Source: an uncultured delta proteobacterium (GTDB lineage: Bacteria; Desulfobacterota; BSN033; UBA1163). Taken from it: a DNA stretch of 16,635 nt. The stretch spans positions 1-16,635 of the forward strand of contig CAVPSJ010000010.1 in assembly GCA_963708295.1 (NCBI GenBank), written 5' to 3'. Below are positions 2,951-16,635 of the stretch, one piece after another. The notes below the pieces were generated by a model that saw only the letters and a list, made by a program, of their open reading frames with translations, did no database searches and was not told the DNA's origin. The position numbers and the translations under genes were made by a program. Every line of letters starts with the position of its first letter. Position 1 is the first letter of the stretch.

Positions 2951-3924
2951 ATGACAATGGCCTACGCAATCAACGCAAAAGGGATATTTAAGACCTTCCA
3001 TTCGGGTTGGTGGAAGAAGCGGCATAAGGAAGCCCTGAAGGGGGTCGACCTCCAGGTCGAAGAAAGGGAAATTTTCGGCATCCTGGGGCCCAACAGGCGC
3101 GGGAAGACGACGCTTTATCGATTTTCTGCACCTTACTGCTTCCAGATCGGGGCGATGTTCGCTTTTGGGCATGAATGGTCTCTCTGACGGACATCAAATC
3201 AGGAAACGAGTGAACTTCGTGAGCGGAAATGCCAACTTTCTCTGGAGCCTGACCGTAAAGGAGAATCTTCACTACTATGGCATGCTTACGGGTTGGCGAG
3301 AAAAGAGCGAGAGAAAAAGGTTGAAACATTGATCGATATTTTCAACCTGGCAGAGCACAGAAATATTCCTTTTGACGAGCTTTCAACCGGGACGAAGCAG
3401 CGACTCACCCTTGCAAAATCCCTTATTAACGACCCCGATGTTCTCTTTTTGGATGAACCCACCGTCGGACTCGATCCGGACATTTCGATTCGGATTCGGG
3501 AGGAGATTCTCTCGATTCATAAAGAAAGGGGTATGACTGTCCTCGTCACCACGCATAATATGAAGGAGGCGGAATATCTTTGCGGTCGCATCGCTTTCTT
3601 GAAAGAGGGAAAGATCCTTACTACCGGAACAGCAGATGCCTTGAAACGAATGGTTCGAATCGGGGATCGGATAAAGATCGAATTTAGGGGGAGGATATCC
3701 AGGAAGACGAATTGCTCCGCGCCGAAGGTGTGATCAATTTTACGGTTTCCGATAGCTTATGTGAAATCGTGGTGGATGACGGAGAGAGAAGGTTAGGGAG
3801 CTTAATCGCCTTGCTTTCGCAGGGCGACGTTCAGATCAAAAGGGTCACGCTAGGGCAGACCGATCTGGAAGATGTGTTCGTCGAATTTGCAAAGAAAGAG
3901 CAGAGTTCTGATTTCGAGAGATGA
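2951..3924 (+). CDS. ABC transporter ATP-binding protein (ABC-2/DrrA-type exporter), frameshifted
   Basis: EALKGVDLQVEEREIFGILGPNxxGKTT (Walker A), signature LSTGTKQRL, Walker B VLFLDEPTVGLDP, H-loop TTHNMKEAE, C-terminal TDLEDVF. Pieces in ORFs 2951..3187, 3293..3733 and 3712..3924, plus a bridging frame (IRKRVNFVSGNANFLWSLTVKENL). Confidence 0.9.
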
Positions 3925-3970: not shown

Positions 3971-4096
3971 AATCTCCCCATACCCCTCTCCTTCGATAAG
4001 CTCAGGATGGTGAGCAAGTCGAACCATTTGCTAAAGAGGGGTAAATTCCATCCTTGGTAAGCTTGCCCGCCGGTAAGCAGGGAGGGGAAGAGGGAT
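3971..4096. repeat. Composite nested palindromic (REP-like) element
   Basis: TACCCCTCT (3981-3989) / AGAGGGGTA (4035-4043), interrupted by the hairpin CCTTCGATAAGCTCAGGATGGTGAGCAAGTCGAACCA (3990-4026). A second insert GCTTGCCCGCCGGTAAGCAGG lies at about 4061-4081. Confidence 0.7.
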
Positions 4097-4107
4097 CGTG
4101 GTGGATT

Positions 4108-5662
4108 ATGAACGGGGCTGAACTGCTTATAAAGACTGCGATCGGGGCAGGGGTGAAGGTCTGTTTTGCTAATCCGGGGACGACAGAACTACCCATCGTT
4201 ACAGCGCTTGACAGAGTGCCGGGGATCAGAGCCTATCTAGGCCTCTTCGAGGGTGTTTGTACCGGCGCTGCCGACGGATACGGGCGGATGCTGGATAAGC
4301 CAGCGATGGTGCTGCTTCACCTGGGGCCCGGTTTTGCCAATGGGATAGCGAATCTGCACAACGCACGGCGTGCCAAATCGCCGGTGCTGAACGTCGTCGG
4401 CGAACATGCGACCTGGCACCGGGATGCGGACCCGCCGCTCGCCATGGATATTGAAAGCCTTGCCAGGACGGTCTCAGGATGGTGGCGAACGAGCAAATCA
4501 GCTCAGAACATTCCGTCGGACATCGCGCACGCTGTGACTGCGACTCGGCTGGGTCAGGTTGCAACCCTGATCGTACCCCATGATTTTCAACTGGCTGAAT
4601 CCGATGGGTACAAGGTGATGGAGCTTGGAAGACCATTTGACCCCCTTGAAACCAATTCTCTAGAAGCAATAGCCTCTCGGTTGAAAACCTTTCGTAAGGT
4701 GGCGGTGATGCTTGGCGGAAGGGGATTGCGAGAGCGTGGCCTGAAAGCAGCCGCCCGCATCCGGAAGAGAATAGGATGCGATCTTCTAGCCCCGACCCTT
4801 CCTGGATATATGGAACGTGGTCCAGGACTGCCCATGGTCGAGCGCATTCCATATTTTCCGGAGCGGGCAGTTGACATGGTTTCGCGTTATGAGATAGTCC
4901 TCTTTGCCGGGGCCTCGGAGCCCGTGACCTTCTTCGGGTACCCTGGTGTCAGGAGCCAAATCTTATCCGATGACCAGGAGAGAATTAATCTATGCACAGA
5001 CAAGCAGAATGTCGTGGAGGCGCTCGAGTCCCCTGGCGGATGTTCTGAATGCGCCTTCGGATTTGACCGTTGAGGGTAATCTCACAAAGCCGAAGCGGCC
5101 GGGAATACCGGAGGGAGAGCTTACAGCCGAAAAGGTCTGCCTCACCCTGGCAGCAATGCAGCCGGAGAATGCCATCATTGTCGACGAAGCCGTGACGACA
5201 GGATTGTCTTATTTCCTTCTCCCAACCGCGCTCCCGGCCCATAGCGTCGTGAATGTCTCGGGTGGCTCCATCGGGCAAGGCATGCCCTGTGCCACCGGTG
5301 CTGCAATCGCCTGTCCCGATCGGCCGGTGATTGACCTGCAGGCGGATGGGAGTGCCCTGTACACCGTTCAGGCCCTGTGGACACAAGCTCGTGAGGCCTT
5401 GAACGTTACCACCCTGATCTGCTCGAACCGGAGTTACCGCATATTGCAGATGGAGCTATCCCGTTCCGGTATCGAGCCCTATGGTCCCAATACCCGGGTA
5501 CTGACAGAGCTGACAAACCCCCCGATCGATTGGGTGAGAATCGCTCAGGGGTTTGGAGTCCCGGGGGTTACTGTTAGCACCGCCAAAGACCTTGCACGGG
5601 AGCTGGGTAGAGCCCTTTCTGAGCCGGGCCCCCATCTGATCGAGATGTTATTGCCAAGATGA
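4108..5662 (+). CDS. Acetolactate synthase large subunit-like ThDP-dependent enzyme; one frameshift near 5030
   Basis: MNGAELL...VCFANPGTTE, LGLFEGVCTGAADGYGRM, LLHLGPGFANGIANLHNARRA; C-terminal ThDP motif GGSIGQGMP..ADGSALYT..NRSYRIL, GPHLIE. ORFs 4054..5073 and 4946..5662 join by removing one C in GAGTCCCCTG. Confidence 0.9.
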
Positions 5663-9312: not shown

Positions 9313-9321
9313 TGGTATAAT
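9313..9321 (+). promoter_or_regulatory. Extended -10 promoter element for the DUF4301 gene
   Basis: TGGTATAAT (TGn-TATAAT) 25 nt upstream of ATG 9347; a second TATAAT at 9255-9260. Confidence 0.5.
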
Positions 9322-9346
9322 GGGGTCGAGAAGGAAAGGGAATGGA

Positions 9347-10917
9347 ATGAGGGGTTTCGAATTCAGCCGGGATGATCGTCTCCAGATGCAGCGTCTGGGT
9401 GTTTCGGAAGACCAGGTGAGAGCGCAGATTCAGGTATTCCGGAAGCCCTTGTTCTTCGCGCGACTCCGCCGGCCCTGTACTCTTGGAGACGGGATTCAAC
9501 AGATTTCCCCGGATGCATTGGAATACTATACCCATTTGCACGAAGAGGCTGCCCAGAAGGGTCGTTTCACAAAATTTGTCCCGGCCTCCGGGGCAGCGAG
9601 CCGAATGTTTAAACTCCTCTTCGAAATCTATGGCCAGAGGCCACTTCCCTCCATGAAAGAATTCCGTGAGCAGGCCGACAGAGGAGACCGGAAGGCAAAG
9701 GATTTTCTTTGTTTTTGCGATGGAATTCGAAAGTTGGCCTTTTTCGATGATTTGAAATCGATGCTAGACAAGAAAGGCCTTTCGGTGGATAAACTATTAG
9801 AGGATCGATGGCAGAAAATTCTAGAATGCCTGCTGAGCGAGCAGGGCTTGAATTACGGGGTCCTTCCCAAGGGGTTATTGGAGTTTCACCGATATTCGTC
9901 TGGAAATCGCACGGCGCTGGAAGAACATTTGGTTGAGGCCATTCATACGGTTCGAGATAGGGAAGGAGTTTGCCGCATCACTTGTTTGTCTCGCCGGAGC
10001 AAGAAGGACCTTCCCGCCGATATTTTGAAAAGATAAAGTCTGGGTACGAGCAACAGTTTCAGTGCCTCTTGGAATCTCACTTTTTCGATTCAAAAACATT
10101 CGACCGATACGATTGCCGTGGATTTGGAAAATCGGCCCTTTCGAGAAGGGGACGGACGCCTTCTCTTCAGCCCGGAGGCCACGGGGCGATTCTCTCGAAT
10201 CTGGCGGAGGTGCAGGGGGATCTTATCTATCTCAAAAATATTGACAACATCTTGCCGGACCGGCTCAGAGGGCCTACGATCATTTGGAAGAAGGCGTTAG
10301 GTGGACTTCTGGTAGAAATCCAGAAAAGGATTTACGAATACGTGGGGCGGTTGACAGAGGGTTCGAAAGACGCTGGGCTGCTTGAAACGGTCATAGACTT
10401 TGCCAGGAAAAGGCTTCTGATACCGGAGCCGCAAGCTTTTAAACAATCGACCGTTGAAAGAAAAGGGGTTACCTTCTGAAGGGACTGAACCGTCCCCTGA
10501 GGGTGTGCGGGATGGTTAGGAATGAAGGGGAGCCCGGGGGAGGGCCTTTCTGGGTGGAAGGGAAGGATGGGAATTTATCTCTGCAAATCGTTGAAAGCGC
10601 CGAGGTGGATCCCCAATCATCTGAACAACAGGCGATTTGGGGCTCTTCAACCCATTTCAACCCCGTTGACCTTGTCTGCGCTGTCAAAGATTTCCGGGGG
10701 AATCCGTTTCCCCTAAAAACTACGTCAAACCGGACGGCTGTTTTCATTTCTCAAAAGTCCGAAGACGGCCGGGATCTCAAGTCGCTGGAATTACCCGGCT
10801 TATGGACACGGGGCCATGGCGGAGTGGATGACCCTCTTTGTAGAGGTGCCAATCGCTACTTTTAACCCAGTTAAAACGGTCAATGACTTGCTCAAATCCG
10901 AACATCAAGCTGGGTAA
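9347..10917 (+). CDS. DUF4301 family protein (nucleotide-diphospho-sugar transferase-like fold); at least 5 frameshifts
   Basis: KFVPASGAASRMFK, GLNYGVLPKGLLEFH, TALEEHLVE, QKHSTDTIAVD, PGGHGAIL, LKNIDN, LNRPLRVCGMVRNEGEPGGGPFWV, STHFNPVDLVC, LELPGLW, VEVPIATFNPVKTVNDLLKSEHQ*. Shifts near 9980, 10080, 10170, 10465 and 10806. Confidence 0.88.
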
Positions 10918-15171: not shown

Positions 15172-16381
15172 TTACTGGATCACCCCTTGCTCTCTAAATT
15201 TGGCGATTTCGTCCCTTCTATAGCCAACCTCTAGTAAAATCTCTTCGGTGTGTTGTCCCAATGCGGGGGCTTCCCGGCGCCACGATGCCGGAGTCTCGCT
15301 GAAGTCCCAGGGAAAGCCAACCATCTTCATTCTGCCCCAGGCCGGGTGCTGGGCATCGATGAAGTATTGATTGGCCAAGGCCTGTGGGTCATTCGATACC
15401 TCTAAAGGCGTTTGAATCGGGGTAAAGATGCAGCCCTCTTCCGTAAGAATCTTCGTCCATTCATCTCTGGATTTTACGGCAAACTGCCGATCCAGAATGG
15501 CGACCAACTCTTCTGCGTTCTGTCCCCTGGCCTCAATACTATCGAATCTTGGGTCATGCTGTAATTCCTGAATGCCGACGGCCTTACAGATTTTTGGCCA
15601 GTATCTGTCCGGATCGAGGTGGGCAATAGCAATCCATTTGCCATCCTTGCACCGATAGTGATTATACAAAGGGTTCCCGGCCGCTGCCCTGATTTCCCTG
15701 GGGAATTCTTGGCCGAGTATGGCCGGGGCTGCCATGATAAATCCGAGCATAGCAATCAGGCTTCCCATCAGGGAAGTGTCGACCACCTGACCTTTGCCCG
15801 TTTTCTCCCGCGCGTAAAGGGCTGCCGTCACCCCCCAAGCACACATCAGTCCGCCTATTTCATCGCCAATTCCCGGCAGGATTTGACTCGGGGGAGTTCC
15901 CCGTTCGCCGCAGGACATCATCATCCCGGAGCGGGCTATCCCCGTATAGTCAAAGGAAAGCTCATTGGCTTCGGGTCCCTTTCGTCCCCAGCCTGAAGCC
16001 TGAGCATAGATAAGCCGCGGGTTGCGGGCCAGCAGGGTCTCGGGCCCGATGCCCAATTTTATCGGGGCTTCTATGCTCATGTTATTCAGAAACACATCCG
16101 CCGTCGATCAGTTTGAGAAAAATTTCTATCCCCTTTTTGTTCTTAAGATCTAAGACGATGCTTCTCTTGTTCCGGTTATGGTGCTCAAAGTAGTAATTCC
16201 GGCCCTTCAGCCCGGTCATCGCACCAATAATTTTCATGAATCCTCTTCCAGGATCCCCTGTCTTCGCTTCAACCTTGATGACATCCGCGCCGAGATCTCC
16301 CAGCCTCATTCCAGCCACAGGTCCCTGCTGAAACATCGTAATCTCCACAACCTTAACTCCTTTTAATGGTCCTGCCGTCAT
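15172..16381 (-). CDS. CaiB/BaiF family III CoA-transferase; one frameshift near 16100
   Basis: GGAGG RBS; MTAGPLKGVKVVE..QGP..LGDLGADVIKVE..GDP.R, NRNKRSIVLDLK, NPRLIYAQASGWG..GP, catalytic Asp region PGIGDEIGG, TGKGQVVDTSL, APALGQHTEEIL. ORFs 16082..16489 and 15172..16095 join at (A)DVFLNN. Confidence 0.92.
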
Positions 16382-16473
16382 TTCAAAACCTCCTTGAAGA
16401 AAATTAATGAACGGTTGGTCCTCAATTTTATGCAAGTAAATGATTTGGAGAGAGTGATTGTTGTCTCTCCTCC

Positions 16474-16508
16474 AAAAAAAAAGGGCCATGGGTTTAACCC
16501 ATGGCCCT
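16474..16508 (-). terminator. Intrinsic terminator in the 5' leader of the CoA-transferase gene
   Basis: Inverted repeat AGGGCCATGGGTT / AACCCATGGCCCT (16482-16508), running into a 9-U tract on the minus strand (A-run 16474-16482). Confidence 0.85.
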
Positions 16509-16635
16509 CATATTGCTGAACGAAATCCATGGGCAGCTTTTATGGTCTGCCCATGGCCTCTTCTCAGTTAATTGCGTCTTCTGAGAGAGGAGGGCAGCCC
16601 TTTGTTAAAGCTAAAAAAGCCAAGGTTAAGGAAAC
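16474..16635 (-). promoter_or_regulatory. Attenuator-like leader with mutually exclusive hairpins
   Basis: Segment 1 CCATGGGCAG (16556-16547) pairs with segment 2 CTGCCCATGG (16536-16527). Segment 2 can instead pair with CCATGGG in the terminator's 5' arm. Two open frames end just upstream of segment 1. Confidence 0.6.

Follow-up and report, generated by a model that had tools for sequence, protein, structure and literature searches.

The closest described counterparts of the element reported here are the pheA and pheST attenuators of gamma-proteobacteria (pheL; excerpts of PMC3082878). Here we describe a leader of this kind in a 16,635-nucleotide (nt) stretch of DNA from an uncultured delta-proteobacterium (GenBank assembly GCA_963708295.1, contig CAVPSJ010000010.1), which in its entirety we call the window; the leader lies on the minus strand at positions 16474-16635, upstream of a gene for a family III CoA-transferase. 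We put at about three in four the probability that it is a ribosome-mediated attenuator that senses charged tRNA-Phe, follows the classical logic of the trp and his operons and controls the downstream CoA-transferase, a reading drawn from sequence comparison and folding models. Like the pheA and pheST leaders, it combines an open reading frame (ORF) carrying a run of phenylalanine (Phe) codons with alternative hairpins and an intrinsic terminator followed by a U tract, and the response that the models lead us to expect is also the same, namely readthrough at low charging of tRNA-Phe. Unlike those leaders, to which it has no match in sequence or structure, it has five relay segments and two hairpins sharing a CCATGG core instead of four segments, its promoter ends 8 nt from the ATG, and its target is a CoA-transferase (elsewhere an operon of a GNAT-type protein and the CoA-transferase) in a metagenome-assembled genome (MAG) of the Thermodesulfobacteriota.

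The attenuator of the his operon has six segments, A to F. The present leader resembles it in having more than four successive segments whose neighbour-only pairing would relay the position of the ribosome to the terminator, and departs from it in that the family has at most a weak first (protector) helix (helix Z:A, 63% paired) and in that its regulatory codons precede the first strong segment instead of being part of it. TnaC-like control involves a conserved arrest peptide and Rho-dependent rather than intrinsic termination; here, by contrast, homologues differ freely in the last third of the peptide and the terminator consists of an intrinsic hairpin followed by a U tract, which speaks against the TnaC-like arrest proposed in a preliminary description of this locus. 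In Deinococcus deserti, according to the available part of PMC4007540, attenuation leader peptides are translated from leaderless transcripts with the 5' end at the start codon or 1 nt before it. The -10 box of the window's leader, 8 nt before the ATG, and similarly placed boxes at four homologous loci (L002, L004, L022 and L026) recall that arrangement as far as it is set out there, with the difference that the start is here predicted from sequence and that other members of the family have longer 5' leaders. The Geobacteraceae possess an unexplained short RNA element 5' of aroG-2, which encodes a Thermotoga-type DAHP synthase (Gmet_R0069 = GSUR082; PMC2700814, in part). Eight members of the present family likewise precede DAHP synthase genes in the same broad lineage, and Gmet_R0069, which is likened to them by description only and, unlike them, is given no leader-peptide interpretation in that part of the paper, may belong to the family.

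No Rfam family matches the leader, a comparison that the preliminary description had suggested: the region in the window gave no leader-like match at E<=10, the best hits being unrelated families far below the gathering score, and ten full-length family members gave nothing at gathering score except two tRNAs. In the open-access full text we found no paper on leader-peptide attenuators in the Thermodesulfobacteriota or the delta-proteobacterial lineage and none combining CoA-transferase, leader peptide, attenuation and phenylalanine, in agreement with the earlier remark that no such control had been described for CoA-transferase genes. The proposed mechanism is a textbook one; what is new is the RNA family, along with the range of its hosts and a number of its targets. 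A well-conserved leader family occurring across many families of Thermodesulfobacteriota is absent from Rfam.

The leader is marked by four CCATGG sites on the minus strand (16551-16556, 16527-16532, 16499-16504 and 16486-16491). These four, out of nine in the window, fall within 71 nt, against an expectation of 5.2 +/- 2.3 for the whole 16.6 kb; in the complete 4.95-Mb genome only ten CCATGG-type hairpins were found, three of them in attenuators of this leader family. The preliminary description had built on these sites four segments with 1:2, 2:3 and 3:4 pairings and a T9 tract, all of which we confirmed in place; a fifth pairing segment, inside the ORF, was absent from it. With coordinates worked out by hand, we designate the five segments A to E in the order of transcription. 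Segment A (16600-16581), in the last third of the ORF, is the 5' half of the antiterminator and pairs with B. Segment B (16544-16567, core 16556-16547; formerly segment 1) pairs with either A or C, and C (16527-16537; formerly 2) either with B over 10 bp or with D over 7-8 bp. Segment D (16496-16509; formerly 3) is the 5' half of the terminator stem, and E (16494-16483; formerly 4) with the T9 tract (16482-16474) completes the intrinsic terminator, occupying 16474-16494.

Segment A is complementary to B on both flanks of B's CCATGG, with the stop codon in the A-B loop, and the A:B fold (-24.8 kcal/mol) is stronger than the 10-bp B:C hairpin (16556-16547 with 16536-16527; -18.9 kcal/mol). The C:D pairing reaches -17.9 kcal/mol when folded in isolation, and the D:E hairpin (16509-16496 with 16494-16483), directly followed by T9, -21.7 kcal/mol. 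The full-length leader folds with z = -5.04, none of 200 shuffles being as stable. The T run ends 92 nt upstream of the CoA-transferase ATG (16381-16379), and the intervening spacer (16382-16473) carries a Shine-Dalgarno-like AAGGAGG at 16395-16389.

Two reading frames enter the leader from the window edge and, as previously noted, stop just upstream of the core of segment B, at 16570-16568 and 16566-16564. Both had been put forward as candidate leader peptides, one rich in Phe and the other in leucine; it is the Phe-rich frame that is conserved. The visible 3' part of the Phe frame (16568-16633) comprises 21 sense codons and the TAA stop (16570-16568), with Phe codons at 16633-16631, 16618-16613 and 16609-16607, and its first nine codons, together with the promoter, lie beyond the end of the window's contig. 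They are present on a metagenome contig, L046 (L-numbers denote fetched loci and contigs), the sole contig matched by an exact 24-base pattern taken from the leader. L046 matches the minus strand of the window letter for letter over the initial 355 nt and at about 99% identity beyond, and extends 1630 nt further upstream; a terminator scan on its identical sequence scored D:E at 13 pairs plus a T run. Here the leader ORF, which is in the Phe frame, has an ATG start and 30 codons up to the TAA at 16570-16568; codons 10, 15, 16 and 18 encode Phe. It is preceded by a sigma-70 promoter, TTGACA-16-TAAAAT (11 of 12 matches), that ends 8 nt before the ATG, and the next gene upstream is divergent, on the opposite strand. 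Since the frame has its own promoter, only 30 codons and a divergent upstream neighbour, it does not form the end of a long gene, the outcome that the preliminary description had named as fatal to its proposal and for which it had looked to an upstream extension. Because only 8 nt separate the -10 box from the ATG, the leader transcript is probably leaderless or nearly so, with a predicted start at the ATG or a few bases from it. In the window's subgroup the -10 box lies 4-8 nt before the start codon of the leader ORF (L046:1570-1608; L002, L004, L022, L026), and other family members have longer 5' leaders with Shine-Dalgarno-like sequences.

Competition between A:B and B:C is well supported by comparison of homologous sequences, covariation included. 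Pairs were counted on an alignment of 25 homologues, which had been fitted to a model containing B:C, D:E and a flank helix and therefore leans towards these, while A1:B, C:D and Z:A stand outside the model. Over the 15 pairs of A:B, 90.7% of cells are paired, against 28-52% with the partner slid, and six pairs show changes on both sides, in 23 cells, a level reached in none of 500 shuffles. Taken together, B:C, D:E and the A/B flank helix (30 pairs) reach 92.1% paired cells; both sides have changed in 14 pairs and 43 cells (again 0/500 shuffles as high), and D:E alone is 96% paired with five pairs changed on both sides. The hairpins are thus conserved with compensatory changes and short aromatic ORFs recur in the homologues, the two signs for which an alignment had originally been proposed. 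With the ORF and promoter on L046, the homologous leaders and this covariation, the original recognition of an attenuator-like leader with a leader peptide ahead of a family III CoA-transferase stands.

The mechanism that we propose begins with the sigma-70 promoter, which would drive a transcript starting at or near the ATG of the 30-codon Phe ORF. The five successive segments would pair with their neighbours only (A:B, B:C, C:D and D:E), D:E with the U9 tract constituting the terminator. When Phe is scarce, the ribosome would stall at the Phe codons upstream of A, leaving A free to capture nascent B; with A:B formed, C would presumably pair with D, so that E is left unpartnered and the polymerase reads into the CoA-transferase gene. 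When Phe is plentiful, the ribosome would pass over A to the stop codon, B:C would form and leave D free, and D:E would then be expected to form, ending transcription at the U tract, provided that the kinetics and the direction of the response are as the models suggest.

Stage-wise folding is consistent with this sequence of events. The leader was folded to minimum energy up to D, with E not yet out and a 28-nt ribosome footprint held unpaired (assumed to cover the first P-site base, 12 nt upstream of it and 15 nt downstream), and states were called by specific partners; a looser criterion of D being sequestered by any upstream partner was discarded. For the window's leader, a ribosome whose A site holds Phe codon 10, 15 or 16 is predicted to give the A:B plus C:D fold, as is the absence of a ribosome; for every A-site position from Phe codon 18 through the stop, the predicted fold is B:C, and D remains free. 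Because 14 nt separate the stop codon from the core of segment B downstream, this core stays outside a 28-nt footprint at the stop, and with the stop in the A site 20 of the 25 homologues are predicted to terminate. Folding the complete transcript at equilibrium under ribosome masks had been tried and was replaced by the stage-wise procedure, as it is uninformative for a kinetic switch.

Several observations weigh against this reading. The start of the leader ORF and its promoter are seen on a near-identical contig, outside the window, and the leader has four Phe codons against five to nine in the other CoA-transferase leaders. With an aromatic codon in the A site, stage-wise folding of the 25 homologues predicts readthrough in 88 of 171 cases, termination in 81 and an unclear state in two, the terminated cases coming mostly from the last aromatic codons beside A and from the roughly seven homologues that are predicted to be terminated at nearly every ribosome position; readthrough is predicted in five of 25 with the stop in the A site. 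Without a ribosome 11 homologues are predicted to read through and 14 to terminate, and the untranslated leader of the window is predicted to read through, unlike that of trp. The equilibrium fold of its full transcript contains the terminator at every ribosome position (P 0.92-0.97). Equilibrium folding gives the terminator for textbook attenuators too, and with the terminator always formed at equilibrium the switch model rests on kinetic trapping. The C:D pairing, on which the relay depends, is 85.4% paired against 85.1% in shuffles, lacks covariation and has its central pair broken in five of the 25 sequences. The candidate protector helix Z:A, with only 63% of cells paired, is barely above slid controls, and we do not claim it. 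Finally, the CoA-transferase is no obvious enzyme of Phe biosynthesis, and its gene is frameshifted in the window's assembly, where it is split near 16095.

The leader belongs to a family that is widespread in the phylum. When the 254 nt that precede the CoA-transferase gene served as a DNA query, homologues were found in eight other genomes among 41 searched (40 relatives and G000, the genome to which the window belongs); those eight represent other genera, families and classes, and none of the 14 same-genus genomes was matched in that search. When aligned, the homologues show the hairpins of the window's leader as well, along with a promoter-like stretch and a short ORF in which Phe, tyrosine (Tyr) or tryptophan (Trp) is frequent. 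Of 401 genomes from the phylum, 42 were matched at E<=0.01 in a second DNA search, some of the matches covering a hairpin only. A covariance model built on nine sequences produced 36 forward-strand matches over the fetched loci, all of which were parsed; wherever the ORF is clear, it abounds in Phe, Tyr or Trp, as do the ORFs at 13 CoA-transferase loci. Behind the 36 matches lie genes for a GNAT-type protein of about 500 residues (17), DAHP synthase (8), the CoA-transferase described here (5, window included), an aminotransferase (2), trpD (2), a trpB-like gene (1) and an ABC binding protein (1), representatives having been confirmed by Pfam or NCBIfam and the others assigned from their N-terminal sequences. 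Leaders before trpD and the trpB-like gene are rich in Trp (L025, L029 and L040), and those before DAHP synthase are mixed Phe/Tyr. By record title, the carriers are delta-proteobacterial or Thermodesulfobacteriota MAGs, for example of Syntrophorhabdaceae, Desulfatiglans and Desulfobacteraceae.

In the window's own genus, members of the family occur in all 15 of 15 genomes, and the 11 loci that were parsed precede genes for an aminotransferase (6), ADH synthase (3; NCBIfam score 412 bits, cut-off 241), DAHP synthase (1) and, judged by eye, a metallo-beta-lactamase-like protein (1). G000 itself carries a second leader (C8:88729-88898, minus strand), rich in Phe/Tyr, before a pyridoxal-phosphate-dependent aminotransferase, and a third (C4:339841-340005, plus strand), also Phe/Tyr, before an unexpected target, a 720-residue molybdopterin oxidoreductase followed by a 694-residue Fe-S flavoprotein. 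The occurrence of leaders with matching codons before DAHP synthase, ADH synthase, trpD and trpB-like genes points to induction by starvation, and it is these biosynthetic targets, together with the folding at the stop position, that argue for the classical logic.

Two further observations concern other putative attenuators. At G000 C15:130199-130218, a CCATGG-type hairpin and a T run stand behind a short ORF with two Trp codons, which, from its sequence, could be another attenuator. The leaders of aminotransferase genes (L020, L036, L080, L086-L089 and that on C8 of G000) end in His-Pro-stop, mostly Gly-His-Pro, with the stop codon directly 3' of segment A. A proline before a stop codon slows peptide release, and the Pro-stop of these leaders could hold the ribosome on the antiterminator half.

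The association of the leader with the CoA-transferase is itself conserved. A scan of species-representative genomes yielded 23 CoA-transferase loci, with products 66-98% identical to the query, and in 13 of them the covariance model places a leader upstream on the same strand. It stands directly before the CoA-transferase gene, 46-207 nt away, at nine of these loci; at the other four it lies about 1.6 kb before it, with a GNAT gene (526-530 codons; domain confirmed for two of the four) in between. The ten loci without a leader include records of Acidobacteriota and Dehalococcoidales, plus one locus whose upstream sequence is just 32 nt long. The window's leader is most similar to those of the operons in the order leader, GNAT gene, CoA-transferase gene. 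A GNAT protein was not found in G000, which is 91% complete, with the query used, and the gene has likely been lost in the window's lineage. The 12 distinct leaders directly before a CoA-transferase hold 83 Phe, three Tyr and one Trp codons, with no Tyr in the aromatic run, and all 17 GNAT-type leaders with a clear ORF contain Tyr (tallies made by eye on the longest printed ORFs). With 83 Phe against three Tyr and one Trp, the codon content indicates that the CoA-transferase leader is one that responds specifically to Phe. A conserved partner gene downstream of the CoA-transferase gene was considered and rejected, as other loci differ: in two relatives' genomes, G233 and G290, the next gene encodes a 471-residue protein with CoA-binding and succinyl-CoA-ligase-like flavodoxin domains (L047:2495-3910 and L048:6215-7630, both minus strand), whose relatives in G000 are only 30-37% identical paralogues located elsewhere in the genome.

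These patterns bear on the idea that the element is a small-protein or small-RNA gene with two tandem terminators, lying beside the CoA-transferase gene with no regulatory coupling to it. Its own promoter, short ORF and strong terminator would fit such a gene, as would the U run that also follows the first hairpin in several relatives. Nevertheless, what is conserved in the peptide is its composition, the aromatic run, and not its sequence, and covariation backs A:B, a competitor of the first hairpin. Moreover, the element always lies upstream of a gene and on the same strand, its codons track the pathway (Trp before trp genes, Phe almost alone before the CoA-transferase), and it is kept at 13 of 23 orthologous CoA-transferases. 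We consider an uncoupled small gene very unlikely.

The preliminary description had favoured the same attenuator with the reverse of trp logic: a ribosome at or near the stop would mask segment 1 (our B) and bring about antitermination, so that translation to the stop when Phe is abundant, or arrest there, induces a catabolic CoA-transferase. To judge by their names, family III CoA-transferases are often catabolic, and the predicted readthrough of the window's leader without a ribosome, and of five homologues at the stop position, would agree with such a switch. The folding, however, turns the argument around, in that the footprint of a ribosome at the stop ends before the B core, so that B:C still forms, and a ribosome on its way there covers A, the competitor of C for B. 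Induction by abundance would also be senseless for DAHP synthase, ADH synthase, trpD and trpB-like genes preceded by matching codons, no arrest motif is apparent in the unconserved C-terminal part of the peptide, and the terminator is intrinsic, not of the Rho type found in tna. Both targets and folding thus favour the trp/his logic, and we hold the reverse to be very unlikely. Equally improbable is a factor-dependent switch, in which the four CCATGG palindromes bind an RNA-binding (or DNA-binding) protein that sets termination and the ORF is incidental or secondary, for although very distant relatives with different targets preserve the CCATGG core in all four strands, a conservation beyond what the hairpins need, and C:D shows no covariation, the loci point to no candidate protein, the core itself includes compensatory changes (columns 152:187), the shared core also lets C pair with either B or D, and the aromatic ORF and the A:B competition already account for regulation.

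The gene that would be governed by this Phe-sensing attenuator is present in the window in two parts on the minus strand, an N-terminal part running to a premature stop (16085-16381; PF02515, 2.7e-27; 78% identical to the G233 orthologue) and a C-terminal part in another frame (15172-16095; PF02515, 2.9e-79; 73% identical). The G233 orthologue is intact, has 403 residues and lies behind a homologous leader. L046 and the contigs of three public sequencing runs have two extra bases between 16098 and 16099, which give a single open frame; these contigs are 95-99% alike and hence come from other strains. The 2-nt gap in the window may be an assembly error or the mark of a real pseudogene. In an NCBIfam search of the CoA-transferase no equivalog reached its cut-off, and no substrate is assigned by this route; among solved structures, the protein comes closest to succinate-hydroxymethylglutarate CoA-transferase (E 3e-52), a formyl-CoA transferase and a benzylsuccinate CoA-transferase subunit. 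The proposed control by Phe starvation hints at a function in the supply of Phe. Synthesis of Phe from phenylacetate and phenylpyruvate has been reported for rumen microbes (PMC7356843, in the part available), and one may speculate that the CoA-transferase activates the acid for such synthesis.

The GNAT protein, which is the commonest target of the leader family and shares an operon with the CoA-transferase in four genomes, has 526-530 residues and a single Pfam domain, GNAT, at about positions 75-160 (L002-L009, L053, L054, L057 and L059); in the Protein Atlas it falls into an unnamed cluster that is commonest in Thermodesulfobacteriota. As a tentative joint reading, which we rate as possible rather than probable, the near Phe-only leader would mark the CoA-transferase, accompanied in many relatives by the GNAT protein of about 527 residues, as part of an undescribed response of anaerobic Thermodesulfobacteriota to Phe starvation. 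This response might be a salvage of aryl acids, in which phenylacetate or a related acid is converted to its CoA thioester and then, by carboxylation and transamination, to Phe. The CCATGG-core family would in that case label an aromatic-amino-acid regulon that also includes the molybdopterin oxidoreductase, the ABC binding protein and the metallo-beta-lactamase-fold protein. As the regulatory codons report the amino acid relevant to each target, they provide a lead on the function of the CoA-transferase (Phe), the GNAT protein (Phe/Tyr) and the molybdopterin oxidoreductase (Phe/Tyr). Annotation of peat and sediment MAGs, where leader ORFs of 30 codons go uncalled, would improve as well.

The window is the entire contig C10 of G000, a MAG of 20 contigs and 4.95 Mb. 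Its last 335 nt have no other match in G000, and the contig end overlaps no other contig; contigs of the three public runs extend 231-389 nt beyond it. The left end of C12, which resembles a continuation by eye, was dropped as a candidate, as no synteny emerges from the genes beside homologous loci and the upstream 1640 nt of L046 match nothing in G000. The part upstream of the leader is simply missing from the assembly. Elsewhere in the window, genes for a thiamine-pyrophosphate enzyme, split into ORFs for its N- and C-terminal domains, and for a DUF4301 protein, split into at least two ORFs, occupy 4054-5662 and 9320-10479 (both plus strand), and a fragment of an ABC ATPase gene lies at 3293-3733; such split genes suggest either an indel-rich assembly or many pseudogenes. 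At the opposite end of the contig from the leader, positions 12-400, within a gene for an FAD-dependent oxidoreductase (PF12831), have an 89.6% identical copy at C9:2733-3120.

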